Source of the DNA: Tubulanus polymorphus
Taxonomy: Eukaryota > Animalia > Nemertea
Direction: 5' to 3'
DNA: 64,000 nt
Assembly (NCBI RefSeq): GCF_964204645.1
Contig: NC_134025.1
Span: 8,680,001 to 8,744,000, forward strand
The translations under genes were made by a program, and so were the position numbers. Shown here one piece after another: positions 39,909-63,900 of this stretch; within the stretch, counting starts at the first letter, position 1, and each line of letters starts with the position of its first letter. The notes under the pieces are model-generated. The model was not told where the DNA came from and searched no databases. It saw only the letters and a list, made by a program, of their open reading frames with translations.

Positions 39909-42900
39909 TCAAGGCGTTGCGAATTGGTGTTCCAGTAACTGTTGGGTACGTGAAGTTTTATTCTTTTCAACTGGCGTATTTTCTCCCGCTTCTTGAGCAA
40001 ATAGCTTCATTTTCTCTCTGAACGTAAGCTTCTCACCTGGAGCTCTCGAGTCATCGTGCTGTGAACTTCGTTTCGTGGCTTCGATACGTGAACGAGGATC
40101 ACGGTATACTTCTTGTCCACCGACAACACCTGGAGTATTCGTAACCATGTAATGCGGCTGAGATTTTTGGGGTGGTGTCGAATCAGGATCGTAATCAAAG
40201 ATCGAACCTGGTGTTGATGGAGATGTGGGCGTGTGTGGTTGGAATCCCGATGAGGAAGACGAATTTGTGCGGTATGATTTTGGAGCAGTATTCGGCTCAT
40301 AAGGCTGGAATCCTTGCATAGACAATGAAGCCGGAATACCGCTGTTTGTAGAGTTATTGTTATTTTTGTAAACTTCAGTTGTCAGGTTTGTATCGAATGA
40401 AACGCTCTTTTTCGGAGGAACGGCAGGTGGAATACGAGATGTACGATTGGTGTTCTGGCTAGGAGGTTGTTGACGATGCTGATTCATTAATGCGTATGAA
40501 GAATTACGCTGCGGAGGAGGAGGACCGTCACTCCTTTCATTGTGAACTTTGCGTGGGCCTGAAGAATTGATGTTTTGATTGTTCACTGAGATATTGAACT
40601 CTGGTCGATTTTGGTTAGAGTCCTGAGGTGAATATGGCTGCTGATAGTTAGCGTATGAGGATGTCAATGGTTTTGTATATTGGAGATGTTCCATTTGTTC
40701 TTGACGTCTGCGTTCATCCTCTTGACGTCTCCTCTGTTCCTCTTCTCTCATAGTACGTTCTTCTGCCTCCCGAACCTCCTGCATCTCACGCAATTGTTCC
40801 TTTTCCTGGAAGAAAAAATGATTTTTAACAATCCAATAGGTCAGAAAATTAAACCATTTCTCAGTCATAAATTCTTACCATTTCTTTCTTTCGACGAATT
40901 TCTTCCAAACGTTTCTGTTTTAGTTTCTCTTCCTCTTGAAGAACAATGCGTTTATTTTCTTCTTGTTCCATTCGCTGTTTCTCTCGAATTTCCTAAAAAA
41001 TTTTGGAAGTGTGAGAATGAAATAAGTGTATTGCACATTCCTTTAAAAAACTTTCAGATTGCAACATACATTTTGGTTGAAACGATTAGAAATTAAATTT
41101 ACTTTTAATCAAATTTTCTAAATCAAAACAAATTCAAGCAAAATCTTATTTAGTTCCTAAATCAAGCAAAAACAGTTAACAAGCGCATTTTCATTGAAGC
41201 AAATATCTTTGTAGTACAGGCGAAGTTTGTCTCATCAGGGGACTAGCATTTCTGATTATCAACATCAAAAATGAATGAGAAAAGATTCAAATATATATTG
41301 GTTAGAATATGTCACATTTGCTAGGTTCATGGACATCATTATATATCATCAGTCATACATAAGGAAAAAGATGCTGAATTATTGTTAATAAGTGCAATAG
41401 AAGTAAAGACTGGATAAGGTTAGTAATTTCGAATAAAGCTTGTAGTTAATAGGAAGGCCTAACATATAGCTTTGGCACCCTGTACTACTGACACAGGCTT
41501 GACAAGAAACACTACAAGCACAAAGCAGCAAATCAAAACAATAAAAGTGCTAAGTTATTATGAAGTAAAAAGGACACAACACATAAACTGATTCAAAGCG
41601 AGGTACAGTATTAGTAATCAGTGTTAGAAGTATCTACATGATCAGTCAGAATGCTTAATATTACTCATGAATGATTTATTGGTACAAGATGCAAATTAAT
41701 GATTGCTTAGCTTCAATTACATCTAATAGATTTCTTACACGAATCTGCACCAAAAGTAAATCAAATTATTCTCATTAAAAGCATAATTTCAAGTTAGCAC
41801 ATTTGGATTGTTAGGTGTTTGTATGTATGAGGTATTGCAGATTTTTGTTGGATTACTCAATACAAACTGCCAATAGTGTTAATAATGAATCATCTAATTT
41901 GATTCTGTTTCTGTTTGAAGAACAATCATTCTGCTGATTCGTGTGTTTATACTAACGCTAACCTCATGGAACGACATGCGAGGTGCATCAAGTTGTCCCC
42001 CTACCCTCTGTTTACGAAGCAATGCTTCGTGTTCTCGCTCTTGACGCTCATGTTTTCGCTGGAGACGCTGACGTTGCTCTTCGCGTTCCTGGTCGTACAT
42101 TTGCAACATACGTTCGTGCCTGAAAACAACACCAAAATTAGATTTCAAGTTGGCTTTAAATAAATTTTAAAAATAATAAAATAAAGATCAATTCTTGTAT
42201 GCCAATTGGAATATTAAAGTTTTACCTTTCTTGCGATTCCTTCTCAATTTCGATATCTCGGATCTTCTCTTTTTCTTCCTGTTGTTTTCGCATTATCTGT
42301 GACTTTTCCAGTTCCTCGATAATCATTCCCGTGAACTTCTGCCGAGTCTGCACAACAAAATGCACATGAAAAATCAGAGATTCATATAAACTACAACTAA
42401 CAAATTCAATTGAAGGATATCTTACCTTAGCTTTATCAAGAATATCATGATCATTATCGTCTTCATCATCATCTTTCTCCTCAGCTTCTTTGACTCGTCG
42501 TTGAAATTCTTGTTCAATTCGTAAATGCTGCAAACGTGACAATTCCTCATTTGTCAAATGTCCTTTTGCTTGTAGCTCAGCAATTTCACGTTCTCTGATT
42601 AACCATGAGTCTCTCTCCCGTTGTTTGGCTTCTCGTTCCTTCTCCTCTTTCTCCCATGGTGATGGCGAAGCAGGAGCCTCTGGTAAAACAATCCGCAGTT
42701 TCGCTTGTGATTCGTGGGTATTGATTGTTTTAAATCTATCAGCTGAATTATTTGAGCTATATGGTGGATAAGTTGGGCTCAATTTGTCAAAGTTAGATTG
42801 TGGAGCCATTGATGGTGGTTGGTACCGCTGATTTTCAGGCAAACGCTTTCCATACGGATCATCGATATCATGCTCGTATTGGTACGCAGTTGGAGGAGGT

Positions 42901-45900
42901 GGTGGGGGTGGTAGATCAGGAACTTCTTGATTGATGTGCTCATTGTTATCAGGGGGAGGTGGTGGTAAGTGATCAGAGGGAGGCGGTGGGAGATCTGGTG
43001 CCTCATTCGTTTTTTCAGGAAATGTCTTAAATATTACACGAGGCTCGTAATTATATGCCGATGGTGACCTCGGTATCTGATTATCTTGATTATACAATGA
43101 AGATCTGTTCTCACTTGGAGGGCGTTTGCTACCAGAAGACAATCTATATTCTGGCTCTCGTCGTTGTTCTACATTTCCATTCATTCTCAATTGTGGCTGA
43201 CCATAACTAAACGGCTGCTTATCACCTTCATAGAAGTGAGGTTGGGTTCGTGTGTGGTCAATACTTAACTTCGGTATCTCATGTTGAGTAATCTTAGGCA
43301 TATCTGGCTTTTGTGCAACTTTTGGTTTTGGAGGTGTAGTCAGTGCTCTTTCCTTATTCTTTAGTTGGAAGAAAGGCGGTGTCATTTCTCTGGATAAAGG
43401 TTGCGTATTCTGATAGAACGAAGGTTGTGTGAATTCATTTTTTTTGCGAGGTACATCGAATTCATCTTCGATTCGACGCATTGAGTCCTGACGAGCAGTT
43501 TGCCCTTGGGGTTCATGACGATAACCAGTGGCCGGGTCAGGTTGGTTCTCTTGCGACGGAGGTGGTGGATAATAATTTGGACTGCGTTGGTCATAGGTCG
43601 GACTTTGAGGTATTTCAGGTCTGTTATTATAGCTTTGACCAGCTGGCTCTTGGCGTAACGCATTCTGTGATTGATTCATATAATTGGGATTAATCTGCTG
43701 TTGCTGGTAATAACTATCAGGTCGACCTCCTTGATTGGCAAAGTCAGATCTGATGCTCTGATTAGACACATCGTGTGGTGGCTGGTCATTGTACTTTTGG
43801 TGCCATTCTTGCATTTTTGGATTCTCTAGTTCATCTGATTTTGGACGATATTGGTTCACATCAGTACTATTGTCTTGGTAGCGGGAACGTGGTCTATCAT
43901 GTTCTGAATTGACTGGTGGTCTGCTGTTGCCATACGGGTCATTATTACGCATATTTACGTCACATCCATAGTATGGTGCGTTTTTATCAATGCCGGCATT
44001 TGCAAGGTTTGGATTCGATTTCGAAAATTGGTTATCTGGTCTTCTTGTGTATTCATTCTGTAGTTGTTGTTGTTGTTGATGTTGGTGGTATTCACGAGGT
44101 AATGTACTAGACGACTGATTTCGTTTACGAGATTCCTCATGTTCGACATCGCTATCGAGATTTGATGTAGATTTTGATCGATTTGAAGCATCTCTAGATG
44201 ACTGTGATCCATAGGCTGGCCTAATAATAGGTTGCGGTGGTCGAATATAAGGATCTCGTGGTTCATCATCTGCAAGAGAAGAAAATGACTTTAATATATA
44301 TCCAATGACTCAAGTACCTATTATGCTTAACTGCATTCTTTACTTTATACACTTTCATTATCTAATCACTGATACTGAATTAAATACTAACGCATAAATT
44401 ACCAAATTAAATAACTGAATGAAAAAATTTAATTACTATGAAGAGAATCATGCTACACATTTGGAAACACATGTACAAGAAATAACATAATATACAGTAA
44501 AATTTATATACCCGTCTTTTATATGAACAAAACCTCATGTTTTAGAGATTTTCTTCATAGCCACTGCTACTTATGTTCACTGATAGATCTGGTGAACTCC
44601 GGCTTTTTTCGTCCAACTTTTCAGCCATTGAAATACGCTTTTTCACCGATCCAGACGCACAATGCTGACCTACACTGAACCGACTTTCACATTTTTTGGC
44701 CACAGTGTCTTTCGGTTCCTCGAGGTCGCTGATTAGATCTTTTAATGACCGAGCTTTACGAACACTACTGCTACCACCGAATAATTCCTTACGCGCTTCA
44801 CTGAGTTTTTCAGAAGAACCCTTATACCCACCGCTACTACTTAGCCGTTGTAGCCGACTACGCGAACTGTCATTATTACTACTAGCACCACCAAAATTAA
44901 GTTTTAAATCTTTCATAGATTTTGACTTAGTTTTTAACAGAGCCATATTACTAATACTTGGAACACCTGTAATGTCTTTCTTAGAAGGTAAAACGTCACT
45001 GGACAGGTCAATGTCCATTAAAACACGATGTCGCCATGAATTACCACTTTCCGACGCTCGGCGATTAGCATCGTTTTTATTATTGTTAGTAGTTTTCGAT
45101 AATATTCTCGCGGATGTTTCTGAGTATTTTCGAACGGGTAATCGTGAATATTCATTTTGAACGATCGGTTCATTTGTAACACGAGCGACGGGGCGAGCTT
45201 TATTTACAATCACAGCATCAACGCTATCTGATGAACTTATTTCCCTTTTAGTGTCTTTATCTCGAGAACGCCTCCGCCGGCGTTTTGAAGCTGTTTCAGT
45301 TGGTGTTATTGATACCGGAATTGACGATATACTGTGCCGCACTATAACAGGACGTTGAACATTGCTAAGATTTATTGTTGCACTAGACCGAAAAACACTA
45401 TCGGATAAATCATCAAATGCACTTGAAATTTCAACTTTTGGTTCATCATTTTTTGGTATTGGATCAAAGTCAGTGTCAATCAAATCAAATGCTTTTTCAG
45501 CTGTTGATTTTTCAAAATCGACAGCTCCTAACTCAGCAAAGAGTTTCACCTCCTCAGGCTCTGGTGTTGGTTCCCGTTTTAACACAGGAGCAGGCTCAAT
45601 ATCCAGTTTTTTTGATGACAAGTTCTTCATTGATTGTGAATGGAATCTAGAAAGTGAATTTAGTTCAGCACCGACTACAGGCTTTATTTGTTTCTGTTGA
45701 TCAGCAACCGGAATCAGAGTAGCTTCAATCTGCTTTAATTTTGATTCTGATAGCAACGGTTCAGTTTTCATCGCTTGAACTTCAAATTTTTGACTTAAAC
45801 TTTTCAATGTTCTTGATCTAATATTACTCATGGCTTGTCTGTCAAGTTTATCATCTTCGATCTTCCGTTTATCTTCTTCACTTTTTGGCACTCGACTTTC

Positions 45901-48900
45901 AAGTATTTTTGTTAAGTCTTTTAATGAACCAGATTTAATTCTACTCAATGTAGCTTCAGCTTGTTTATTTTTTTTTGCTTCAACTTTTTGATATCGCTGT
46001 TCCATCATCTGTGTCAAATCTTTAAACGATTTTTCCTTTGGTTTTGCCTTAGCTTCATCAGCTCCTGTTTTCACCATCCACTTTTCAACTACCCTAGTTA
46101 TGTCAGAAATATCACCCGATTTCACAAGAACCTCCTCATCTTCATCAGACCCAACTTGTTTCAGTTCATCAGCTTTTGGAATATCATTCAGATCAACATT
46201 TTCCATGTTTTTCCATGATCTTGATAAATGACGTGTAAAATAACTGGTTTTTCTTCGAGGATAAGCAGATTTTAGCTCGGATGGTTGAGATTCAGTTGAC
46301 TTAGATATATCTTTACTCTCAGTAGCAAATTGTTCACTTTCACTTTTTGGCATTCCTTTATCCGAGGCCTCTTGCAAGACACCAGTTATTTTGGTTTCAG
46401 TGACAAGGTTATCTATATCAAGTGTCTGCTGAGACATTTTCATGGCCTTTTCTTCTGTAGTTGGAGAAGCTACTTTAACAGCATCATTTGTTGTATCAAG
46501 AACACTTAATTGCTCAGAGGAATCTTTTGCATTTGATTCTTTAGAGCAGGATATAGAGGAATTTACTTCAACATGAGTAGTTTCATCTATTGGAACACTT
46601 GAAGACACATCATGCTTTATTTCACATTCAATTTGAGGTTCTTCCGATACAGTAATAACAGACTTGTCTTCGAAGTCTGTATTGCGATGAACCAAGGACG
46701 TCATATCATTAGAACTTAAAGATTTTGAATTTTCTACAGAATGTACCATATCACTTGTTTCAGGGCCATTATCCTTTTTAGAACCACGAAAGCTGAAAAA
46801 CGATGGCTTGCTTTCTTGATTCGATTTGGTGTTTGAAGATTCTTTTTCATCTTGAGGTTGAGCATCTTTGATGTTAAAAAATCCTTTCACACTTTTAATT
46901 ACTTTAGACATAGCACCATCTTCATTGCTTTGAGCATTAGGTTGGGTGGAATCATTGGTGATTGATTGACTAACAATGCAATCAGGTACATTTGATTCAT
47001 CAACTTGTTCCCTTAGTTCAATTGAAGATATTTCATCAATCGTGCTCTCAACTTTTGATCCATCAACTTGTTCACTTAGTTCAATTGAAGATATTTCATC
47101 AATCCTGCTCTCTACTTTTGATCCATGAACTTGTTCTCTTAGGTCAATTGAAGATATTACAACAATCTTGCTTTCTACTTGTGATCCATCAACTTGTTCT
47201 CTTAGGTCAATTGAAGATGTTTTATTTATCTTGCTTTCCACTTCGTCATCTTTTTGTTCAACTTCTCCTCTTAGGTCAATGGAAGATGTTTCATTTATCT
47301 TGCTTTCCACTTTGTCATCCTTTTGTTCAGAAACATTTGTGATTATACCAGTATCCTCCGAAAATTTAGTTTCAACAGGCGTTGCAGGCAGTTTTCTGCC
47401 ACTGGACCTTCGTCTGATCCTTGATTTATCCTCACTCTGCTCCAAATGTTCAGGTTTTTTGTAACTATTTTCATCTTGACTACTCAAATTTCCTTGAGGT
47501 AGTGTATTACGCTTTATTTCATTATCATTCGATATTTCTAGATTTTCATCTTCATTGGCAGAATTTCTATGTGGGCGTCTTCTGCGAATAGGCTCACTAC
47601 TTTTCTCAGCCACAGGTGGTGTATTATAATCAGAATGTTTTAAATCTTCTTCTCTACCAGTAGATTTTCTTTGAGGGCGACGTCTTTGAGGCTTTCCCAC
47701 ATTGTCATTCGATATTGTTTCCATTGGAACAGAACCTTCCAAATTGACATTTTTTACCATATTCAATACCCCAATTTCAGACTCCTGTTGTGAGGATGAA
47801 TCAACAAGGGTGTCATTTACAAATGACGGTGCACTTGGCTGAATCTTTTCATCGCTTTTACTTGCTCGTGTACGCCATCTTCGTGGCAGTGTACCGGCTT
47901 TCAATGTATCATTCATTGGATCCACTTTTTTGCCAAGCCCTTCATTTTTTGCGAATGAAATACGTCCTTGCGGCAATGTACTGTCTCTAGTTTGAACTGC
48001 TTCCTGTTTAGACGATAGAATACGTGTTCGTTGTAGATTTTCCTTAGACTTATATTCATCCATTGATACCAAGTTTTCTGAATCGGAACGAAATCTTGAT
48101 TTGGCAGGAATTGATTTTTTTGGCGGCGAATCAACATCAGCTTTTTGCTCAAGTGACTTCAAACGATCCTTTAAAGATAATCCAACAGAAAAACTAGATT
48201 TGCCTGATGCAATAGATTGAGCACTTTTTGCACTCTCTTCTTCGAAATGATGAACTGAATGTCGGAGAGACCTTCTTTTTGATACATGATCCTGTGATTT
48301 GGGCTGCTGGTCACTTTCAGCTTTATCAGTTGTATAAAGCGATCTCAAACGCATTTTTAGAGATGGTATATCAGTCTGTATTTTTTGTTCTTTGGCTTTG
48401 ACATCTGTTACAGCACTTTTAGCAGCTTCATCTTCAAAAAGATGGATTGATTTACGTAAAGAACCTCTGGACACTACATCAGTTTTTTCAGGTGAAGTCT
48501 TTTTCACTCTCAGAGTTACAATTTCTTTTTCACTGTCAGCAGCATCTAAAGATTCAAACTTTTTGGCAAAATTTTTAAGTGAGCCGGGAGGTTTACGTCT
48601 TTTGTCTTTCTTTTCTGGCGGAGGTAATTTCCTATTTTCAAAGGCTTTTGCTTTGTCTTGAAACGACTTTGATGCACTAATCAAATCAATAGGCTCATCA
48701 TCATTTGCAATTATGTTATAAATAGCTTCAGAGTATTCAGGTGAATGATTTATTGTACTCAATCTTGCAGACGATTTCTCTATTTGAGTTTCAGGACAAC
48801 CAGAACTGATCTTGCTTGGAATCAAATTATCACTTTCACTTTTGGCAGCTGGAACATTGATGGGTTTTTCAACTTCAGATTTTCGCCTCACTCTTTTTAC

Positions 48901-51900
48901 ATCATCAATATCATTGTCCATTTGTTCCTGAAATTTATCAGCAAGACCTTGCAGTCCTTTTAATTTTGGCTGAGATTGCTTGTCATCAGTAGCTATATCA
49001 TGTCTTCTTGGAGGAGCCACAAAAACCTCCCCATCAGAGGTATCAGGAGCTGATTTCATCTTACCAAGAGATATCTTCCTTACAGGAACAGAAACTTTGG
49101 CTTGTTCCTCCAATCCATTTTCCTTGTGAGCTGTTTCAACATTTGTTTCACCAACTTTTGTAGTGATATCTACATTCAGTTCAATATGTTCATGAGATTT
49201 AGGAGATTCCTCAGTGACTCTTTCTTTATCTTTTCTTATAGGTGACTCTATAATTCCTCCAAGAATCTCTTTACTTAAACATTCTAGTGGCTGACTTACC
49301 AATTTGCTATCAGTAATTTCAGGTTCAGTTTTTTTCACTTGTGCAAAGTCTGAAATGAAATTTTCAGGTTTCATTTGCACTTCCTGTTCGTCGATAACAT
49401 ATGAAGAGTTCTTTTCAGAAGTTGCATCTTCACTGTTGTCAGTTTCCACCTTATCTTCTATGAATTTGCCATCATCATAACCAGAATACATATCAAAACC
49501 ATCTTGTTTTTGGATGCCAAAATTCCTTCGGTCGAGACTTGTAGTTTTCCAAGAATTGTCACCAACTGAACTCGTAAATGCATGTCTCTGTGAGTTCATT
49601 TGTCTACGGTCTAAGCTCCCATAGCTTGAAAGTGATTTTACTTTATCACGAGGTGAATAACTACCAACTGTAGCTCGTTTGTCATTTTCTTCGAATTTCT
49701 GAGTTATGTTTTTCAAAGAGCCAGATGGAACTACTTCCAAATTGCTAAGTCTAGAGGAGCTTAAAGATGAACTTTCCCGGGATTTTACTTTATGATCTCT
49801 CTCTTCACATGCTTGTTTGATATTTCTCAAAGATGTGCTAGCAGATCTTTCAGCACTACTAAGTCTTGGAGAACTTGATTCATAGTCACCAGCTCTCTTA
49901 TCTCGTTCTTCATATAATTTAGTTATATCCTTTAGAGACCGAGATTTCATCTTATTCAGACTCCTATTATCTGCATTGTTAGAACCATGACTTCTACCTG
50001 GCTTTTGCCTGAGCACAACTTCTCCTTCAGCCGCTTTCTTATCATTGGCTTCAAACGAATTTGTTAAGTCTTTCAATGATTTAGATTTCCACAAACTACC
50101 GATTTCGGAATGGGTACTGATTGATTTCTTTGGTTTGATATCTGCAGGCACCTTGTCCCTATCAACTAATGTCTTCGGGTGTTTGCTGGCTTTTTCAACC
50201 TCTTCAAAACTCTGAGTCAAGTCTTTTAATGAGCGAGATTTGCTCATACCAAGTGATGATAGAATACTGGCCATTTTTTTAGGCTTTGTTTTATCTGCTT
50301 CAGCTTCAGTAGTTGAATGAGGAGCTGTGTTTTCAAAAACATCTCTTAGTGATTTAGTTCGTCTCATTGCTCCAAGTTCTTTTTCTACATAATTCCTTTC
50401 AGCAGAAATAGAATGTCTGCCTTCTGAACCTTTCAAAGATTTGACAGGTGTCATTGGACTTGTCAGTCTATGGGCCTTTTCATTGATATCAATAGGAACT
50501 GTGCTGAGTGAAAGTGGTCGAGAATTAGATGCTGAAGGTATATCTGACGACACATTTCCTGTGCTTTTCAATCTACGATCTCGAAGAACTGGTTTTGTTG
50601 CTACTGGAGGTGGACATTTTTCTGAACTGGTGGTGTTTTGCTTCAAAATGGGTTTCACTGGCATGGTTGGCTCATTCACGCGACTTTCAGCTTTTTGAAT
50701 CATATCAGATATAGATTTGCCTCTGGTTCTCAAGGCTCTTATGTCTCTTACTCCTTCACTCACTTTGCGAACACGCTCAACAGCCAGGGCAGGGTCTGCT
50801 TTGCCTTTGTCCCAAGACTCTAGATTAGTGATGAAGGAGCCGCGACGGTACTTTAACCCTAATTTGTCAACTCGGTACTCCATGTTATCATCGATATCAT
50901 CATCACGATCACCATCATCAGGTTGACTTCCAGAAAAGGCATCGTCGATTAACTGTTCTTCAGACACAACTGAAGCACTATCTGAGCCATAGACATCACT
51001 TCTGTCCGAACTTTGACCACTTAATTTTCTATTTGTACTGAAACCGCTGTCAGAATGATTTTCATTACGATCTGTTTCTTTTTCAGTAACAATACTGTAT
51101 TCCTGTCGTGGGCTTCTTGGATTGAATGAACTATATTTTTTTGAATTATCAGCTGGGCCCTTGTCAGTGATTTCATATTTTGTATTCTCAATATCCCCAA
51201 CATGAACTGGCACATTCGTGACCTTCAAAGGCATCATTTTAGGTGGTGAAGAAAGTTGCCGATCGATTTCATCTTTTAATCTTTGTTCTTCCTCAGTCAA
51301 CTCTTCATCACTGAAGATATCGCTTAAGTTATTTGCAGCAAGGTGATCACTGTTGCCTTTTACCTCTTGATTTGGCCTCTGATGTTCTTCATTGAGAATG
51401 TCAATTTGTATAATATTTTCTTTAACTAAAGCATCATTGTTGGATTCTTGATTGCTATCAGGTGATGGCATTTCCTTGTCGGAACTCCTATTTCTGTCGG
51501 TTATGGTGGAGATTTCCTTATCTTCATCCGTCAATTGAGCCTCATCTAAGTAGATTACCTCCTCCGATTCAGAATTTGGTTCATGGCAGCATGGTAATAA
51601 TGTGGAATTTTCAATGGGATCAGCTGTTCCATCAAACGAAGGCACTAGTTCATTGATGGAATATTCTTTCATCATTCTAGTTTCAGCAGTAATGACAGGT
51701 ATTCTTTGTAAGTCAATATCACAGTCAGTTTTGTCAAAGCATTTGACTTCAGCAGTAGAGTGAGTGTCTTTCTCAGACAATTCACTCATATCACAGACTG
51801 GTAAGCAAGGAACAGACTGCCCCAAAACATCAATTTTACTTTCATCATAAACAGCTTCATAATCTAAGTCTTTCCCTTTCACAAGATCATTTCTAAGGTC

Positions 51901-54900
51901 ATATTCATTCTTTGGCTCACTAGATTCATTGGCAGTACAATGAATCAAGTCACCATTTACAGCAGCTTCCTGATTGATACCTGCAGAGTGATCATTTGAA
52001 ACCAATGTCATCTCAGAGGAAAAATATTCTATATCATTCTTAGACTTTGCCTTTTTAATTTCCTTTTGTTCATCATCTTCCAAGATTTCACCAAAATGCA
52101 TAGATTTATCCTCTGATTCATTTGTCAAACTGCTATCATCTTTCATTTCAGATAGATTGGATCCTTTTCCAAGATCGAATAAATCTGATAACCTCTGCTT
52201 AAGTACACTATCCTCAGAACTTGTCTTTGAATGCACTTTGTCTGTGTTGTCTGTATCCGCTTTTTCAAGATTGAGCAGATCCGACAATTTTCTTTTCAAA
52301 GGGAATTTTTGTGGGGTTGTATTTAGCTTTTCATCTTGGTCACTTTTTTCACAAAACAAAGGCGTCTTATCTGATATAGTAACATTATTCAGCTCATTTT
52401 GTTGGCAGGTAACTGCTTCTAATGTTTTACATTCATTCTGATTTGAATTAGGCATAGCATTCTCTGATGACTTTTTGCGGTTATCACGGAATTCAAAAAA
52501 CTTTGAAATTTTTACTGATATAGATTCATCTTCAATCATAGTTTCTGTATCACTGGCTTTTGATTTATTTTGTTTTGCCAGATCACCTGAATGGTCAGGA
52601 AGATTAATATCCCCGGAATCTTCAATTCTTTTACCTAATATAGCATTATTTTCTGGCAAACTATTGCTCTCCTTTGCAAAATTTGATGTTTTATCATCAA
52701 TATTATCATTTATCAATTGAGAATTATCATTTTTGCCATCAGTGCCAAAACTGAAGAAGTCTTTTATCTTATTTACGAAACTATCCTCTCTTTCTGGGTC
52801 CGACATTTTTATATCAATATTCGTTTTAATTGTTTTTTGCTCGCCCCGCTCGCTATCACCGTCGGTATTCGACACCGAACTTTGAAATTCACTCATATTT
52901 GATAACGCGAATATATGTAATCCTTTATCGGTTTGATTGAGTGTTGGAGTGCGCAAATCCTTGGCCTCAGTAGCTATTAAGTCCCTCCTCAGGCTCTGTA
53001 TAAAGAGATAAAGAAACAAAAGGGATGACACATCTACTCACTATCTACACAGTGAGTCGCTGAAATAAAAAAGGATGTGCAAATAATGGATCGCAGATCA
53101 ATCACCCTTACCCCAGTAACAACCACAAAAATATTGTATATTATTAACCAAATTACTATGATTCTTAGTGAAGTTTGTTTTAAGGGGAGAACATATCATA
53201 TCCATTGTTTGCACAACCACTCGCGTTAGTACCTGGGTTAGTGTACATGGACACAAACAAATGTGCCACAGGTAACTTACTTAATGATGGAGTAGATTTA
53301 GTCTGATCTTGACCTTTGAGCAGACGACCTTGGAATTCTCTTGGTTCAGGTGCTTTGTTATTGTAGCGTCTCTTCAAAGTTACTGAACTTTCACCATCTA
53401 TGTCTACCTGGTACCTAGCTGCATCTTCACTACGGGGCCTGGATGGCTTTTCGATCTGCGATGTTGGCCTTCTCGGTGATGCTGCAAGGGAATAAGAAAC
53501 TAACAAAATGAAGACTTTCAGAATTTCAAGGCTGGTTTCAAGAGATTTTTTGCAACGGGAGTCAGTAGTTCTTATGTGTCTACGCTTCACTAATATTTTC
53601 GTGATTGTTATAACTGAAGCCCCTGAGTCAAGAATTACTTGCACAGTGACAGAACTATTAATAATGACCCAAATACCCGTGAAACCAATCCCTTTTACAA
53701 AAGACATGGATCAACATTCATGCATAACTGCCATTAGCGTAAGGGAATTCATTACAACTGTTGACTAACACCTCTACTTTAAATCAGATATTACAATACA
53801 AAACAAGACAATTACCTCTTTGTATTTCAGGGGATGGTTGATTCAGTAAGGTGGCAAGTCCATGGTAAACTGCAGCTTTACGGGCAACTTTCAGTGTTAC
53901 TCTGTCACCTGTTTTTACCATCAACTCAGCAGCCCTAAAACAGCAATATAGATGGTTATCATTAATCTCAAATACCAGATAAATAGCATAGATTAGACAT
54001 AGAAATAAATATATAATCTGTGTGGGAATAGTTTTTAAGAACTCACTTTTCTTGAGAGACACCAATTAAACTCTTGCCATCTACTTCTAAAAGTTGATCC
54101 CCTGCTTGTAAACGGCCATCCTGAATAACAGAAGTTATATCAGTTCACTCTCTAGAAATCTAACCATCAAGATGGCGTTTTATGACATGAGAATGCATGC
54201 TTACCAATGCTGCTGCCCCATCTGGCACGACAGACTTGATATAAATACCACGTTTATCCTGATTTTCGCCCTAGAGAAAAAATAAAGCTATTACAAAGCT
54301 GACATTGATATTACAGATAAATATAGTGCATCAACGGTAAGGATGCATGGTGGGCTACACAGAGGCATGCTTTCAAACACTTCATATCATTCAAATACGA
54401 AAACATGAAATGAATTTATGTGGCAATTATCTTTAGACAAAGAGCAATACAATAAATTGAATTTTCAAAACATATCCATAAATGACGATGAAATTTTTCA
54501 TCTAAGAATGAGGCCCAGCAATTGACGCTTGCCATTTTATTGTACAGCGATTATACTGTGTATGAAGACAAGACATTCAATGTGTAAATAAAGACCTGTC
54601 TACATAGAAATTCTTTAGACATTCGACAATAGGGCAAAAATTATGGGGACACTTTTTATTTCCCAATATAAAAGTCTATCTTCCACTTCAATGAATTCAA
54701 AATATTTTTGGAGATCAGATTTTCTCGCCTAGTCGAAAAACATTGATATATGTAATATAAGGGCCAACATTCCTTAGATGTTTAAGTCTTTTTTTCATAC
54801 CAAACATCGACAACCCATTCTAAAGAAATATAGATTACATAAGGAATGTTTAAATATTGATTCGAGGAATGTTTGAATTTCGATTCGAAGAGTATAAAGA

Positions 54901-57900
54901 AATTATTCCAAGCTATTAAAACAACATTGCTACCTTTTTGAGTCTTTTAATGTATAGCCTATTTATACATGTTAAGTCAGATTTAAGAATGATTATGATA
55001 AATCTAGACGACCGAGTAATACAATGAATTACACAAAATCTTAGTATACAATAAAACCAACTTCGAACAAACATGGTATGTCTTATAAAATCAACCATTA
55101 AATTCTCCATGACAAACTTATTTCATGAAAACATGCCTAAGAGATATTAAGTGCAAGCCACCATGCAAGGAAGGTTCAATCACAATTAATTTACAGCCTA
55201 AGAACGAACAATTAAAAACATTGTTCAATAATGGATGGTCACGGGCTGAGACAATATTATTCAATACAGTATGACAAGTATGTAATTCCATGGGTGAAAC
55301 TTTCTGAATGCAATTAATTGATTAAAATACAGTTACAACTGGGTTTAATAAACGCATTTGAACCTGAAATCCCTTGAAGTGTTTATATCAGATATAAAAA
55401 CTGTTCCAAATATTCTGGTAGCACGTTTGTAAATCAAAGCTTTCAGAAAGTTTATCCCACTCAACCACAACACACCACCATTCACGCAATAAAAAGCAAA
55501 TGTTGAAATCCGATTGAATATGATGATAATTTCTAAGAGTGGAATTGCTCTTAAATTCCTGTGGTATGTTAACGAAAATCGAATAATTATGTTAACCAAT
55601 CGTAGAACTATTCAAAGAAAAAAAGTGTGGCCACAAAAATAATTGAATCTCAACTGGTATGCTTTTTATCATAAAAACAAGAAAATAATAAACAGTTGAA
55701 AAAGGTTAGCATTTGTTAATAATACGCAGTCTCGCAATACACATTCATACACATGTAATATAACGATAAAGTATAAAACATCTAGAAAATTAACTCAATG
55801 AATACCCAACTAAAAATCCTACATTGGCATAAAAGAGAGCTTCGCCTCAGTGACCGCATTGAAAATATATCAAAATAATAAAACATATACCGGGTACACA
55901 CCCTAGTCAATAATCAGGTATGACACAAAATAAACTGAATTGAATTTGGGTCATCAAATAACGTGATTTGAAATAATTTCTCTTCTTTTATTCAGAAACT
56001 TATCCAGAAGACAAGGCATATATGAATCTGATACAAACTTACCAGTCTTATCACGATAATACTGAATCATATTGGCCAGTTTGTCATCAGATCTGAAGGA
56101 TTCCGCTCGACCTAGACTTACGCGTAAAACTTTTCTCATACTCAGATAGAAAGCCTGCTGTCTGCTACATTAGCAATACTTTTATAATGAACTCATAATG
56201 AACTCCTAATAAACTGGGTTTTGAAAATATTGTATTGGGATTTTCTTACACTATTTCAAAAATATCATTGTTTCAAATTTGACGAATGGATCGTGAAGAT
56301 AAGATAATGAGGACAAAGAGGAAAAATGATGACAGAAGATAAATCAAATGGTGATATTCTATTTTCATATAAAATTCTATATCTGAAATGTTCTTCCAAT
56401 TGTACGCAAGTTAGAATTAAGGTATACTGATCACTTGCTTAGGTAAATACTCTCTTTAACGAACATAGGGTGTACGAATATATGTGAATCGGCGCCAAAA
56501 CAAAACAGGAGGGGTCAATTACATTCTTTATGTCAGACTGAAAATGAAGCATGTCCAGTAATGCGTAAAATTCCCTTGAAGTCACCACAGTTTAGCAATT
56601 TGGAATTAGCACGACATGGCCATATACAATGAACAAATTGGAACCAATTCAATTAGAGACAGTTCATTCAATTCAATCAACCAAATATTTCTCTTATATC
56701 CTGAGTAAAACATATAATCAACAATTTACAGCTTTTATAATGGACTTGGCCGAAATAAAATGGTTTGCCAGAGTTTAATGAATGCATACAAACTAAAATC
56801 TTTGCACGACCAATAGCAATGGTATTTTGATTTAAAGAATAATTTGCCAAATCAAGTATGAAGTCTGAAACACAGCAATTTTAGTTACTAATGCTGATAT
56901 ATGTTAATTTTAATCAATCATAATAGATCTACATTCATATCTTTTCATTTCTATTTTGAGATTTGTTTCGTAAGTTATATATTCAATTTCTATTCAATTA
57001 AACAATAAGGGCATCTTGAAAACTAAATGAAAAGCCAAAATGTAACTATTCAGCAAATCGACTATAAAATCAAATCATTGAAAACTACAAACTTATTTCA
57101 GTTTTAATGATTTACGAATTATGCAATTTAGATGATTAGTGATAATATAATATCCCTCGCTTTACCTCGTTAAGTATCAATCCGTACTATCCGAGTATCT
57201 GTCGTACATATGTCTATAGTCCAAAACACATTTACAGCACTCACAATGTCATGGGTAAGGAAGAAAACTTTTTGCTATGACCTATTCATTATGGCACTGT
57301 CACTGCGATGTATTGCTAGTACTGAGTGGGACGGTCTGCGCTTTATTTCGGTTAAGGCTCGCACCAAGCAGGTTTTTCAGTCACGGACGAATGTATGTGT
57401 ATAATTCAGCGTTAATACCCCTGCATAGAAATCCATTGAGCTTCCATGGGAGAAAATACATAAACCCGCGATTTCCGTAGACAAAAGCGTTTTCGTTCAT
57501 AAACGCGCATACCGGTGCAAGAATAGGTGAAAATATGCAAAGCATGCACAATTTAATGTCTCACCAATAGAATTTATGGTGGTATCTCATTTTGGCTCTA
57601 AAACGGTCTGAATTCTTGCCACTGTGCGACGTATGTGACAATATTCTAAAGCCTATTGCCGAGAAATGTTACAAATAGTTAACAAATATACCGAGCCATT
57701 CTATATTTTGTTGATATTCTAATGGGGATAATAAATTATATACACAAAATGTACATATTAGGACATTATACTAAAAGGATTGGAATTGAGAAGAAATGAA
57801 GCTCTTTAGAGACAATATTTAATCTAATACTTAGTATTTTTAAATGAAATATTATGGTTGAGGTTTACTTTAAAAATTCCAAGAGAAAATGAAATAAATT

Positions 57901-60900
57901 CTTCATATTTTTAGGGGGATTTCGACAACATCAAACACAAGCGCTAATATCACACATCACAAGTGTAAACCAGTAGCGTGGCAGACTACAGGAGGTCTGA
58001 TCCCTGCATTGAAATAATTTCTGATTCCTCTTTAGTATCCTGATTGAAATATAGTGACACTAATATAAATCATGAGCAAGCACTTTCAAACCATACAACA
58101 TTTTTCTTGACACTAAGTTAAACGACACTATGACCAGAAAAAAAAACATAGGCTACAACAGAAGACACCCATGACATAAATATTCCTTCCACCATTAGGG
58201 AATGCGTTCTTCTTTTATTACGGTATTATTTGAATTAAAGTCTGAAGAGTCACATTAGTGCATTAATGCAAAAGTGCTTTATATCGCTTTCTCTTTTAAG
58301 AATATAATTCAATTTAGAATATTTCTAGAATAAGCAAGCCATTCTAATCTATAGAATTGCTTGAAAAAAGACCTTCATTAAGTATGGCAGTGTCATGCTG
58401 ACAATAGACAGCTTAATCAATATGCGCATTGTATGATTTTTCAAATACCTAAAATGATACTTCTTTTTAGTCATCAAAATTTTATATTATCTGAACAACG
58501 AGCTATTTCATGATTACTAGGGAGGTATGAATTTGTCACTAATACATAACAAACAAAGCCATATTCCTCTTTCCGCGCCGAATGGACAAATACAAGCAAT
58601 CACACGCATACACACATACATACATAAACTAGATAGGTTAGCAAGGATTATAATACCATAAACACGTATAATATAACAATTTGTCATGAAAGTTATTGCA
58701 AACGTTCTTTATATATAACCAATGTCTCATTCAAAGCTGGCATTCAACATATATGCAGATTTGTATCATTGATCAGAAAAAAACTTACCGTTGCAGCAAC
58801 GATGCTCAGACCCATGCTGCCCTTTACTTTGTTGAAGACAATCGTACAAACTTCGGGCTCGTTAGGGACATCATTGATGGACCCTCCAGCACCAGGTTGC
58901 CTCGGGGGTGGAACCTGAAATACATAAAACATTGTACTCACTTTGGAACTACCCTGATACTCATTCTATCATAGGTTTATCTGAGAATAAAAAGCCACTA
59001 GTAATGAAATAATTCAATACATTGAAGCAAATCAACTTAGAATTGTCCCAAAAAATGATATGAGAAATTCAATACCTTAGCTAAGAATTTGGGAAAGACT
59101 TTGTAATTAGCCTTGTGCTTCCTTCTATGAGCATGAAAAAACAGATCTCGACTAAAGAAAATCTGCATCTCAAATAAAACTCCTAGCACAATATCACATA
59201 ATCCTCAACTTCCATACATGATCCAGCAATAATTACTGAATTTAAACGCATATGGTACAGTTCGAAACACAGCGTCATGAAGATGTAATCACACTGCTGA
59301 GCATAGAGAAACTAATGCACAATGTGAAGAACATAAAAACATCGTAGTCATGGAAAAGCCAATGATCGGTTGAGCAAAACAAATAGCTAAGCGGATATGT
59401 AGCATGATAATGAAAATCAATGAAACCTGTCACAGCATCAACTACAGCGCTAGAGATATACCAATCAACTTAATGAGATCAAAATATGCTATCAATTTGA
59501 AATATTAACGACCACATGTAGTGATGGGTACATTATACAAATGGTAGGTAGGCGCGAGATAGATATAAATGGAATATTAATTAAAAGCTTTGATGAATGA
59601 TGATGAAAGATGCTATACAACTACAGATCCTCATTTCTTTGGACTAAGACATAAACTATACTGACTTTATATCATATGTCATATGTAGAGGAATAATTTA
59701 GACTTAATAGACATCATCATTATTCATGAAATTATGAAAGCAATGCTGCAATTAATTTTTCTCATACCTCATTTGGCGGGCCCATGTACACCTTCCACAT
59801 ACCAGGAGAATTATGATTGATGATCAAGCGACAAATTCCTACGAAAATTAATGTACATTTGATTACTTCAATTAGGAGTGAATTCCTACAAAATTCATAA
59901 ATTAATCAGGGTTTTACTAGTATTCAATTTCCCACTATTCACTTTTCAGTTTCATTTTATTCGATCATTAGGTACAATTAATAAAATGCATGAGAGGAAT
60001 ATTTACCGGTTTTACATAAAGGTTCAACGTATTCTGGTAAGCCATTTGGCACGTCACGAACTATATCACACGAATAACCATCTTCGGGAAGTAAAAATGG
60101 CAAGTGTAGATTGGGATCCTCTTCAAGGTGTATATCGCGACCTTCACTACGTATCAGTTCATCATTTGATGTTTCAGCAATGTTCACCATTCTATAAGAA
60201 ATAATATCACAAAATAAAACTACTGAAATTTGAATTAGCTTTCACAAGTTCAGAGGCCATATACTCAAAAGTTGGTTTGAGTTAACCAGTGGATAGTTGA
60301 CATTGGGAAAATCAAAAGTCCATTGTAACTGTGGTATTTATCGGCCAGTTATCTTAAACTAACTTTCGAGCGACTGGCCCCAGTCCTACACTGATGAAGA
60401 GGCAGAAATGAAAACAAATTAATAAATGTTTTTTCTAACGCAGACTTACTTAAGGATGAGATCATGCGGAATACTTTGTTCATCTCTCATGGGTATATAG
60501 TTCTGTAGAAGTACACGCATCTGCAAGGAATTCAATTTGAACCACGACGCGCTACGATTGATCAGATCATTCGGATTGCTTTTCGGCATTTCCAGTAAAT
60601 CAGACGCTTGCAGAATACGGGCCAGGTGACAGTCAGCGGCCAATTCGAGGCCTTGTTTCTCTGCCCAAACTTCGACACGACCGAGTCGTCGATGCAGCCG
60701 ATGGCCCCACAGTCGAGAACACAACTGCAAACGCGGTTCGAGTACGAGTTGGTTAAAAAGCCACATATTGATGAAATGGAAAAGTTGTGAAAACAATTGG
60801 ATGGTCAAAGCTGCGTTAACGCGACATCTTCTCAGTAATGACATCGCAGCTGACATTGTGGATAAAACATCACCTGCAAAAAGAAAAAATGCAATGTCAA

Positions 60901-63900
60901 TTCCACAAAAGTTTATCGATGTTGCAGGGAATTCATATCTCCTTTATATTCTCTGAGTAATAATTTTCCTTCACATATGATTATAGTATAAAGATGTCTC
61001 CATTTTTATAAATTTCAAACTCCCATATCAACTGATATGCAACAAAAATTTTGGAAGTACAAAAAAGCTAGAAAAAAAAAACATTCAAGCTTATTAAGAA
61101 ATTGATTAAAATAAGCAAAGAAAACCATCAGCTAGGGAACAACTTTGGAGTCCATATGACTACAATTATAGACAAGAATATATTCAGGGTGCAAAAAACA
61201 CTTTGTCAGTAATAGAATTATTACAATATATATCAGCAGTGGAAATGGGATAAATTTAGGCATGCAAGAATAATTTCAACTGAACATTGATTTACCATAG
61301 GTTTGTATTTGCATTTTTACGAAGATTTCATTATATAATTTGTACATTAAAATCTATGATTTCAAGCATGCAGTTGGTGCACGAAAGATAACAATTTTTA
61401 ACTAATCAAAGCCCTTAATGATAGCTGTCTAACTATTGATGATCCTCAGTTTCATGTGTTCATAGACAATTCATGCATATAACATTGATACATTTGTATT
61501 TAGTGCTTCATTCAGTGTGTCATATATTAGACATACATGTATTTTAGTTAGCAGCTGTAATCTACACTAAGGTATTACTAAGCTCATCTTAGAAAAATCA
61601 CTCATTTGAAGTTTTCTCTTTTTTGTACGTGGAAGTATAGATACAAACATACTGTTTAATGAGATTTCATCTAGATTAATGATCTTTAGAAAATCAACAG
61701 GAAATTCATCTTCTTAAGAAAATCTGCAGATTTGAAGTCATTTGAAAATGAATTTCTCAAATCCAGGCCTGCACCTGACTCAATAGGTAAAGGAAATCAT
61801 ATCCACAGAACAAATGATGATTCTAGAAATTTAAGAAATTTAGATGACGGAATCGAATTTGTTTACCCATAATTGGTCGATTTCTTTGAAACCGATCACG
61901 CATCGCTGAAGAGCGGTCTTCTGAAGAAAAAAGAACTAGCCCTTTTAACGTTTTTGTCACTTTTACTGCTTATTAAAAGAAATATACTAACCCGTCAATA
62001 AGAATCTGGGATTGAAATAATTGACATACGGGGACAAAATAATGACTGGGGAACGGCAGCAAGATTCATATGCATGTAATAATGTCAATGAAGCAAACGT
62101 AAAACAGGAAAACTAGGCTATTGGAAACAAATAATTCTATATAATTTCTCTCATCCCAATGTCCTTTTTAACTAATTCTCAATATAAAATACAATATGAA
62201 ATAACATGAATTGCAATGATATTAAGGATCATTAAGATGATCTGAGAATTTACCATTGTTCCAATCTTCATCGGTGTCGTCGTCATTGTTGTCGAGGAAT
62301 GCTGGCATCGCTTGTTGCAAATCTCGCTCTAAACATAACACCAAGTGATTGAACCCGACCTCCACTGTTTCCGCGAGCACGTTCTGTGCATCTACGCTGT
62401 AGGCATTCAGGTCGCGATCTTGTTTGAAGAAGTTCAATATCTCCGATGCATTCGCCATCCAAAAGGAGAGGCCAGCTGCGTCATCCCGATTTTCCTATAT
62501 GATAACAAAAATATTCTTAACTCTACTTAAGACAGGGTACCCCATTAATTACCACTGTTTGATTTTATGCGCAACCTAGCAATTTCATCTGTTTAAAAAA
62601 ATTTCCTGACTGACTACTGTATTCCCTGATTTTTTTAAAGAAGAGAAACTGCCCTGACTTCTCTGATTTCCAGTTTAGAAGCCACCCTGTTAGATATACC
62701 AAATTTTAAGAAACAATTGACAAATATATTCACCTCAATAGTGCACTGCACGAGGCTAGCGATTTTGTTCACGAATGCTGTCAGTCGATGTGCACGTTCA
62801 GACGGATTATGTGGGTATGGACCTGTCACACGAAATCTCGTCGCCATATACAGCGAATACGTCGGAGCTAACTTAAACATCACACTCAGCGGGTCGATAT
62901 CAGTTATCAATGAAGCCAGGAAAGCATCTTCTCCTAGGAAAAAAGATCACATCATTCAGTTACGGTCTGAGTGTTCTTTTCACGTTAGCAGCGGTGAAGG
63001 TTGATCAAATATTTACCATCATCTCTAAATTCTAGAGAAGCGGGGAGTACGTCCTCCTGGTAATCAGTGCTTGGTGGTGGAAGAGTATTGGGATCTTGCA
63101 TGGCCCTAGAAATGACACATAAACATACTGATCTAAATACTCATTATCTTAAAATACACAGAATCACTAGTGGTAGTAGTGTAAATACCTATGTTGCATC
63201 ATATCGTTGTGTGGTGGATAGGGTGCCTTAGGGTCACCTTCATAGATCGGATCTGTGGATTTCTGCAGTGGAGACGTCACTCGTTGGAGCTGCTTCTTTA
63301 AAGTAATACTCTAATTAAAAGACACACCGACGAAAAAGACGAAAGGTGTTAATTGAAAGCGAGATAAACTATTAAAAAAAAAACTGAACTGAAAAACCTG
63401 TCGTCAGTACATAAACTAAACTAGGACAAACCATGTTGCCTTTAAAATGCAGAGGTACATAAGGTGTAAGGATTGAGAATAACCAAATGGAGCAATGTGG
63501 ATGTCTGTGACTAAACCAATTCATAATAGGCTACTGGAAAAATGATTAGTGCGAGTGAATAAATCAGGTTAATTTCTAGAGAATGAAATCTTTAAAGGTA
63601 CACAAAAAATGTGCTCATCCGTTTAACAGTAAGGGATGTGAATATGATTGCTTAAGCAATTTTTTCTGTTCTAACAAAACTTGTAATAAGGTCAGAACCC
63701 ATGAAAGTTGCAATTTATAGTTGCTTACCTCACCGACTAATGGATCGACAAAGCGGAATAGATTATGCTTGCCAAAACGAATAGTGTTATTGTCTTGCAG
63801 TAAAGTAGTTTCATAAATTCGTTGGTTGTCGACATAAATTTCAGCATCTTTCACAATTGGCGTGGCAGTAACTATACCTTCGGCATGAGCGATTACACAA

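Follow-up and report, generated by a model that had tools for sequence, protein, structure and literature searches.

The window (the whole 64,000-nt stretch of Tubulanus polymorphus contig NC_134025.1 analyzed here) harbored an afadin gene on the minus strand, recognized by Pfam matches to FHA and DIL and by tblastn to named afadins. This gene contained (i) FHA and DIL exons at 59969..63998 (Pfam and tblastn), the 5′ end of the gene lying outside the window; (ii) PDZ exons at 53816..58900 (..-58789, 54270-54205, 54120-54047, and 53934-53816; RNA joints, translation, and tblastn); (iii) the last afadin exon ahead of a giant exon at 53281..53481 (RNA joints and tblastn), which ended in phase 1; and (iv) the canonical C-terminal exons at 39909..44269 (44269-42426, 42347-42226, 42119-41963, 40992-40879, and 40805-stop; RNA joints), which a frame check placed in frame with exon 53281 when the giant exon was skipped. 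The C-terminal exons carried afadin's own FAB-region motif (39996..40025, minus strand; two Phe seven residues apart, at P1 and P8); a similar motif had been pointed out near 40030 in the preliminary description of this DNA, and it was present at 40025. The C terminus around it had 52% identity to mite afadin (tblastn), and the Phe pair recurred in four other afadin loci. A candidate frame-keeping afadin micro-exon of 18 nt (53042..53059, minus strand; strong acceptor, 11.8; donor, 6.1) was absent from the RNA and leaves the giant ORF out of frame.

The giant exon (8,484 nt; 44512..52995, minus strand) was bounded by acceptor 52995 and donor 44512, both RNA supported and with GT-AG confirmed, and its length was a multiple of 3. 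The giant ORF announced in the preliminary description was recovered inside the afadin gene by translation: a minus-strand frame open over 2,831 codons (44545..53037; stop codon 44544-44542), with its first ATG at 52896 (2,784 aa) and the next in-frame ATG at 52806. Stops in the introns occurred at 0.064 per codon, i.e., every 16 codons, and codon-position GC in the giant ORF was biased (0.47/0.39/0.26). Three variants fell within the ORF, two of them changing a residue and none being nonsense, and one 1-nt gap was confined to one low-depth contig. Pfam had no match to the 2,831-aa frame at E up to 0.1; the predicted product of this frame was Ser rich (10-21% by segment), and a young coding tandem repeat with 63-69 bp units (46987..47329, minus strand) lay in an acidic motif-free spacer between clusters 2 and 3 (see below).

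The RNA evidence came from one run (X2) in the form of assembled contigs, which cannot show RNA ends and were classed as RNA since they skip GT-AG introns; the extent of the X2 pieces inside the giant exon was obtained by depth arithmetic. RNA was present over most of the 8.5-kb exon, and RNA joints tied it to afadin on both sides (53281->52995 and 44512->44269), i.e., it was spliced to afadin between the PDZ exons and the canonical IDR/FAB exons, the placement of an alternative IDR exon of the cnoRD/RI type. Depth arithmetic gave no intron cover beside either exon end. No single RNA contig spanned the exon, and cover was patchy from about 52760 to 50970. The skipping join 53281->44269 was absent among the 10 RNA joints in these contigs, which drop rare variants. 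The 5′ contig of X2 stopped about 200-240 nt into the giant exon, just beyond an ATTAAA at 52830; a poly(A) site there was set aside as a hint only, such a hexamer lying 10-35 nt upstream at 6% of exon positions. An assembly error at the exon start was rejected, with no indel in the spanning DNA contig X1 (which may itself be the source of the window) or in X2, which came from another sample.

The join 53281->52995 was out of frame: afadin stopped after nine residues (afadin-frame tail and stop at 52967..52995, minus strand; stop at 52969-52967), and the giant ORF lay in the +1 frame. The afadin domains are thus never joined to the array by that route, and junction localization does not follow; the exon swap proposed earlier, one afadin motif for about 20, fails on this join, while the array itself is likely to be made as a separate protein. 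A TAA at the splice junction shut the giant frame upstream, the afadin tail and the giant frame overlapped by 10 codons, and the 70 nt from the afadin stop to the ATG of the giant ORF were ATG free, that ATG being the next one. Splice-site scoring, based on a matrix built on just 10 introns, found no strong in-frame route into the giant exon: the in-frame donors were weak (phase 0 at 53407, scoring 3.8, and phase 0 after 58789 and 54205, both of which break PDZ), and so were the in-frame internal acceptors at 52587, 50820, 49350, and 48078 (5.0-7.5), all of them scoring below acceptor 52995 (11.4); acceptor 50820 was crossed unspliced by RNA contig 50630-50970.

The giant frame was open for 33 codons between the acceptor and the ATG (chance, 0.11), and these codons together with an exon length divisible by 3 gave mild hints of an upstream coding join. 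No start site or promoter was apparent in the contigs; this and the same open codons count against a separate start. At the other end, the stop of the giant ORF lay 30 nt ahead of donor 44512 and was followed by five introns. A stop codon with introns downstream is a layout inviting nonsense-mediated decay in vertebrates, and it counts against the reading as a separate protein.

Human proteins served in 2025-26 to define the class of short F-actin-binding motifs (SFMs), whose core is VxxLxxxFE; according to the accessible part of PMC13364712, the motif mostly occurs in one to three copies per protein with Val at P1, a residue its authors held essential. Its table of 124 motifs nevertheless allowed Leu, Phe, and Thr at P1 (Leu in 12 and Phe in 2, counted by eye), the Leu-P1 rows being mostly predictions (PMC13364712). 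Nineteen motif copies of the giant ORF aligned gap-free and fell into three clusters on the minus strand: (i) cluster 1 at 49690..50724, with P0 at 50715 (marginal), 50232, 50079, 49938, 49833, and 49719; (ii) cluster 2 at 48148..48966, with P0 at 48957 (fails), 48666, 48582, 48462, 48363 (fails), 48270, and 48177; and (iii) cluster 3 at 44620..46038, with P0 at 46029, 45927, 45810, 44919 (fails), 44748, and 44649. A 20th listed copy (about 50358, in cluster 1) had the P1/P4/P8/P9 spacing only in a shifted register, with Thr at P1, and was excluded from the alignment. By leave-one-out scoring, 15 of the 19 copies stood out clearly, with no more than 0.05 such sites expected in a shuffled protein, while 50715 was marginal (0.75) and 48957, 48363, and 44919 failed. 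The peptides and three clusters of the preliminary description were readable in the translation, and its count of about 20 held for these 15 clear copies only; the motif as it was first formulated matched only 4 copies.

The array displayed the SFM spacing, with hydrophobic P1, P4, and P8 plus acidic P9, and the proposed enrichment over shuffled sequence was borne out: the SFM-derived pattern with Ser/Thr at P0 had 12 matches versus 1.19 expected (0/1000 shuffles), and without the P0 requirement, it had 18 versus 6.2 expected. Hydrophobic-x6-F-E occurred 9 times versus 0.9-1.0 in shuffles, none of 1000 reaching 9. Shifting the P4-P8 gap in the pattern with Ser/Thr at P0 left 0-2 matches, making the enrichment specific to SFM spacing. 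Across the 19 copies, P0 was Ser/Thr in 18, P1 was Leu/Phe/Ile/Met/Val in all (Leu in 14 and Val in 1), P4 was hydrophobic in 13, P8 was Phe in 10, Leu/Tyr/Met in 6, and Ala or Cys in 3, and P9 was Glu in 16; upstream, P-3 was basic in 11, P-5 hydrophobic in 8, and P-2 Ser in 10. Phe at P8 was enriched 13-fold, and Glu stood at P9 in 15/26 anchors. The exact V-x-x-L-x-x-x-F-E core, with the canonical Val at P1, was found in 0 copies.

Synonymous codon identity among the copies was 0.39 (113/291) versus a background of 0.38, which indicates that their likeness is held at the peptide level by selection on the peptide; recent DNA duplication was rejected on the same figures as the origin of the motif cores. 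Flanks were alike in copies 49938, 49833, and 49719 and in copies 48462 and 48270, a pattern that points to old internal duplications; the spacers were hence not all unrelated as first described, while the selection on the peptide suggested with them was upheld. Neighboring copies were mostly 28-57 residues apart, and by segment charge, the clusters were basic while the long spacers between them were acidic.

Single-sequence AlphaFold2 modeling of 50940-49600 gave a pTM of 0.19, with 261/447 residues at pLDDT <50. All six aligned copies of cluster 1 were in predicted helices, four of them starting at P0 or P1; cluster 1 copies are accordingly modeled as short helices in a disordered chain. For krill cytoplasmic actin (P0006, residues 263-638), a complex prediction with the 32-aa peptide of copy 50232, run without alignments by a tool unproven for peptides, scored 0.03 versus a mark of 0.34, which weighs neither for nor against binding.

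Sequence homologue searches covered the part of the giant frame with clusters 1 and 2: residues 650-1700 retrieved 0/7,977 candidates among proteins of 1,530-4,871 aa, and 50940-47938 retrieved none among 1.84 billion representatives at E up to 0.001. ESM Atlas leads were all <0.9 with low recognition scores (CRYBG1 at 0.87, DUF4592, TNKS1BP1, LIMCH1, AMER2, and NCKAP5) and were not counted as evidence. Of 48 afadin loci fetched, 7 had a PDZ match reaching the conserved helix region, including the near-identical L036 and L038 and thus representing 6 distinct loci; those left out were L037 (matches in both orientations), L045 (ending in PDZ), and 39 without a PDZ match. These seven loci from other animals contained no frame >878 aa and no motif array. 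The closest FHA match was 57%, so that orthologues were compared without close relatives, and the above searches yielded no orthologue in which conserved core positions, a check named in the preliminary description, could be followed. No description of the array was found in the literature on afadin alternative exons and such arrays.

Taken together, the locus is best explained, with a probability of roughly 0.47, by a separate, transcribed, lineage-specific multivalent actin-binding disordered protein that is encoded at the afadin locus, has its own ATG, and bears 15-20 helices. A splice absent from this RNA run might instead make the giant exon an in-frame alternative tail of a protein of about 4,000 residues, the array replacing the disordered tail and FAB of afadin. 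The Drosophila cnoRD/RI exon, with 718 Ser-rich residues in the accessible part of PMC10399776, is a precedent, and the Ser-rich content right behind PDZ, the weak donor 53407 and four internal acceptors, the open codons ahead of the ATG, and the loss of rare variants from contigs all fit; we nevertheless hold this tail to be possible but somewhat unlikely, because the sole join seen into the giant exon was out of frame, acceptor 52995 outscored every in-frame one, and RNA ran unspliced over 50820. It is quite unlikely that one mRNA gives both short afadin and the array, whether ribosomes re-initiate across the 70-nt spacer or shift to the +1 frame in the 10-codon overlap. Both exon ends were spliced to afadin in the same RNA run without flanking intron cover, the spacer was short and ATG free, and the skipping join was not among the 10 joints (an absence that proves nothing in contigs), but no contig crossed the exon, cover was patchy, and the overlap folded no better than shuffles (z 0.33), leading us to reject a frameshift-stimulating structure there. 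We know of no recognized frameshift signal in this overlap, and re-initiation is generally considered inefficient once a long ORF has been translated. The fuller version, in which the 8.5-kb exon truncates afadin past PDZ and the same RNA gives a separate 300-kDa array protein with up to 20 helices as a phosphorylation-tunable bundler, is improbable; if true, a single splice choice would swap afadin's actin link for a free filament bundler.

There is also a slim chance that the copies belong to a scaffold and serve as basophilic kinase/14-3-3 sites or as helices on which some other partner docks. The AMPK/MARK consensus has a basic residue at -3 and hydrophobic residues at -5 and +4 around Ser, and the copies resemble it in their P-3, P-5, and P4 tallies, with Ser frequent at P-2 and a P1 that differs from the Val of SFMs. 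Kinase sites would leave the Phe at P8 and the Glu at P9 unexplained at their fixed spacing, and Ser/Thr is itself enriched from P-2 to P0 in SFMs (PMC13364712, accessible part), so that phosphorylation would fit as a means of regulating an actin anchor. That the ORF is a relic, either in decay or not translated, with exon inclusion merely truncating or degrading afadin mRNA, is hardly credible: the out-of-frame inclusion with its early stop, the two residue-changing variants, and the lack of a homologue in sequence searches would suit it, but the 2,831 open codons, the codon-position GC bias, the motifs retained alongside saturated synonymous sites, the absence of nonsense variants, and the restriction of the 1-nt gap to one low-depth contig all speak against it.

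As a separate protein, the array would be translated from ATG 52896 or 52806 of a transcript arising near the 5′ end of the exon, the afadin 3′ exons serving as its untranslated tail, while the join 53281->52995 would give a short afadin with its folded domains kept and no actin-binding tail. Each copy would be a short helix, predicted to begin at P1 and to be preceded by the P0 Ser, and would fill the actin cleft with its P1, P4, and P8 residues at a weak affinity like that of SFMs (13-89 uM; PMC13364712, accessible part); three basic clusters with long acidic spacers could together make an avid filament binder or cross-linker. In SFMs, Ser/Thr is enriched from P-2 to P0 and the P0 Ser bonds actin Asp25 (PMC13364712, accessible part), which fits the phospho-regulation put forward earlier, and P0 phosphorylation would likely switch actin binding off. 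If true, the array would offer, in 15-20 Leu-P1 variants on a single chain, a natural test set for P1 tolerance and would inform how weak anchors sum and whether P0 phosphorylation switches binding. A giant exon spliced to afadin at both ends and out of frame would also be misannotated by gene predictors, and its translation route is a testable question.

The array and the SFM class shared the P1/P4/P8/P9 spacing, the Phe-Glu end, Ser/Thr at P0, and a short helix in a disordered region (predicted for the array). The likeness to frabin/FGD4 and neurabin noticed at the outset stands, as both are SFM entries (PMC13364712, Supplementary Table 3) and the copies have their spacing, while afadin was absent from the text and table of that paper. 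The array differed from the class in having Leu rather than Val at P1 in 14/19 copies, in its 15-20 copies versus the one to three mostly listed, and in being an invertebrate, lineage-specific, putative actin binder. The Xin-repeat proteins XIRP1 and XIRP2, with 9 and 5 SFMs, respectively (PMC13364712), are likewise very long, mainly disordered, and rich in SFM-type helices and may be its nearest functional analogue; the array had no Pfam Xin match, other residues, and irregular spacing, and Xin genes nested in afadin were not described in the literature consulted on the subject. In Canoe, F-actin co-sedimentation by the FAB depends on a pair of Phe residues seven positions apart (10.64898/2026.09.28.754968), the same Phe spacing as in afadin motif 40025 and in P1/P8 of the array, and the Canoe/afadin FAB sticker has been modeled as a helix-turn-helix (PMC12132324; 10.64898/2026.09.28.754968). 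The FAB motif ranked outside the four best afadin sites on the array matrix (all below -1.5), and this comparison thus does not show that array and FAB share an origin. The Drosophila cnoRD/RI exon is described as replacing nearly the whole IDR and FAB within the Canoe protein (PMC10399776, accessible part); it and the giant exon are both long Ser-rich alternative exons past PDZ that remove the normal IDR and FAB, the latter being absent from mammalian s-afadin as well. The giant ORF differs in its fourfold length, its motif array, and a reading frame that does not match afadin's through the observed splice. Besides flies, this would make a second animal lineage whose afadin locus carries an alternative coding exon of giant size.

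The window is eukaryotic DNA (GC 36%) from an invertebrate animal, and the afadin gene lay on its minus strand, with Pfam matches to FHA in the exon at 63998-63618 (-) (E 1.4e-7) and to DIL in the exon near 60877-60425 (-) (E 1.2e-25); its PDZ and C-terminal exons were 46-66% identical to afadins of a spider and a mite (tblastn). A giant stop-free frame of 2,831 codons extended over 53037-44545 (-), flanked by the PDZ exons on one side and by the canonical C-terminal exons on the other; it had no Pfam match, and a young coding tandem repeat (46987-47329 (-), 63-69-bp units) was located in its acidic spacer. Elsewhere in the window, a satellite with 120-bp units occupied 11386-13657 (about 15 copies, 92% identity), and short frames at about 32600-36100 (+) resembled exons of an SV2/SVOP-kind membrane transporter; three pieces of them that were tried had no Pfam match.

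The assembled contigs of X2 (a run taken as RNA) displayed 10 GT-AG joints in 39000-58900, two of which, 53281 to 52995 and 44512 to 44269, lay on the two sides of the giant exon (52995-44512 (-)). Much of this exon was covered by X2 contigs in separate pieces (those listed: 44699-46214, 46609-47617, 48584-49884, and 50630-50970), while its flanking introns had no X2 cover, and bin depths fitted exon-only cover (7.89/7.88, 8.07/8.04, 42.65/42.4, and 123.7/123.8). X2 cover at low depth was also found at 54272-55599 and 56928-57591, in the 4.5-kb intron splitting PDZ, possibly representing alternative first exons or nascent RNA. The afadin exon 53481-53281 ended in phase 1, and if the giant exon is skipped, joining 53281 to 44269 keeps the reading frame of canonical afadin; the listed X2 joints did not contain this one, an absence that in contigs proves nothing.

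The giant exon had been described preliminarily as an exon swap into afadin, but the join seen in RNA (53281 to 52995) gave an afadin tail of nine residues followed by a stop at 52969-52967, with the giant open reading frame (ORF) in the +1 frame relative to afadin and a TAA at the junction closing the giant frame. No indel near the giant exon start was reported in X1 (a DNA run that may be the window's source) or in X2 (X2-X4 being from one sample). In-frame alternatives were weak: the donor at 53407 scored 3.8, and internal acceptors reached at most 7.5 compared to 11.4 for 52995 (matrix from ten introns). Given this out-of-frame join and these alternatives, the data do not show a swap, and an in-frame fusion with afadin is unlikely, although it is kept alive by Drosophila cnoRD/RI, in which, according to the accessible part of PMC10399776, a 718-aa Ser-rich exon stands in place of the disordered tail and the F-actin-binding region.

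The first ATG after the afadin stop was that of the giant ORF (52896, 70 nt downstream), and the giant ORF stop lay 30 nt upstream of the donor at 44512, which scored lowest among the ten donors. One mRNA specifying two proteins, a short afadin and the giant ORF product, is a still more doubtful arrangement than the fusion. The giant ORF more probably has a separate translation start (probability about 0.6): an mRNA beginning near the giant exon, with a start that we infer, would in a eukaryote be the simplest way to make a protein that is evidently under selection. Nearby, a candidate 18-nt frame-keeping afadin micro-exon was located at 53059-53042 (-), where the acceptor was strong (11.8) and the donor resembled the consensus (6.1); it was not seen in X2 contigs, and because a mere 46 nt separate it from the acceptor at 52995, it and the giant exon may be mutually exclusive. 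Two ACTAAC elements at 53242 and 53230 (-), just after the 53281 donor, follow the pattern of Quaking/HOW binding or branch points and may regulate the giant exon.

The motif array in the giant ORF is real. Nineteen of the 20 listed copies aligned gap-free in 32-residue windows, and the 20th, near 50358, fitted when shifted in register, which placed Thr at P1. The 19 aligned copies had Ser at P0 (17/19), Leu 14, Phe 2, Ile 1, Met 1, and Val 1 at P1, Lys/Arg at P2 (16/19), Asp/Asn at P3 (13/19), Leu/Ile/Met/Phe 13 and Arg/Lys 4 at P4, Phe 10 and Leu 4 at P8, and Glu at P9 (16/19). Leave-one-out matrix scoring passed 15 of them, with 50715 marginal and 48957, 48363, and 44919 failing, and no additional copy stood out in the giant ORF; the exact motif proposed along with the preliminary count of about 20 copies fitted four copies only. 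The pattern hydrophobic-x6-Phe-Glu had nine matches in the giant ORF versus 0.9-1.0 in global and local shuffles (0/1000 reaching 9). Because copy-derived patterns are circular, residue classes from the published table of short F-actin-binding motifs (SFMs) were used as well, taken by eye after the copies had been seen: this SFM-class pattern gave 18 matches versus 6.2 expected from shuffles (0/1000 reaching 18), and with Ser/Thr at P0 it gave 12 versus 1.19 (0/1000 reaching 12), which bore out the enrichment over shuffled sequence that had been set as a test. With the P4-P8 gap varied from 1 to 5, SFM-class matches with P0 Ser/Thr numbered 2, 1, 12, 2, and 0, respectively; the reversed giant protein had two, and the pattern was not enriched in the same gene's afadin C-terminal part or in spider or mite tails (0-2 matches).

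Synonymous identity among the copies (0.39, 113/291) was at background (0.38), and selection on the peptide would be the simplest reading of their likeness. The spacers had been called unrelated, which did not hold for the neighbouring copies 49938/49833/49719 and 48462/48270, whose similar flanks indicate that part of the array stems from old duplications. Most neighbours within clusters were 28-57 residues apart, and the gaps between clusters were 254 and 716 residues; motif-rich segments were neutral to basic, while the long spacer was acidic, as were the first 600 residues. Single-sequence AlphaFold2 gave no fold for 50940-49600 (pTM 0.19; pLDDT <50 in 261/447 residues) and predicted helices on all six aligned copies therein, four of them beginning at P0 or P1. 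A predicted helix run just before cluster 1 (50850-50690 (-), model residues 35-88) did not fit the motif and is possibly another binding site.

The giant ORF is real, transcribed, and lineage-specific, with a real SFM-like array. Among 48 afadin loci from metagenome contigs, seven spanned the stretch between PDZ and the conserved helix region, and a giant frame or an array was present in none of these seven; protein searches, in which the animal was represented by distant relatives only, found no relative, and a literature search yielded no description of an invertebrate afadin gene with a giant alternative exon. A spider afadin (P0001) harbored a ~290-residue insert directly after PDZ (residues about 1045-1330), located one exon boundary upstream of the giant exon's site and having no SFM-class match. 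In one metagenome contig (L003:150-6119), an afadin frame of 1,990 codons lacked introns and had a long, charged tail resembling a coiled coil.

ITPKA and Lifeact on F-actin served to define the SFM, VxxLxxxFE; its affinities range over 13-89 uM, and binding is lost upon P1/P8 changes (accessible text of bioRxiv 10.1101/2025.04.16.649135). In the available portions of the journal version (PMC13364712), Supplementary Table 3 includes FGD4 and neurabin, in agreement with the likeness to both noted earlier, as well as nine SFMs of XIRP1, and afadin is absent from that table; P1 in the 124 listed SFMs, counted by eye, is Leu in 12, Phe in 2, and Thr in 6, Ser/Thr are enriched at P-2 to P0, and P0 Ser bonds actin Asp25. 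The array resembled SFMs on every feature tested except Val at P1, and it was thus classed as an SFM variant, not a member; judged from this likeness, F-actin binding by the array is quite probable.
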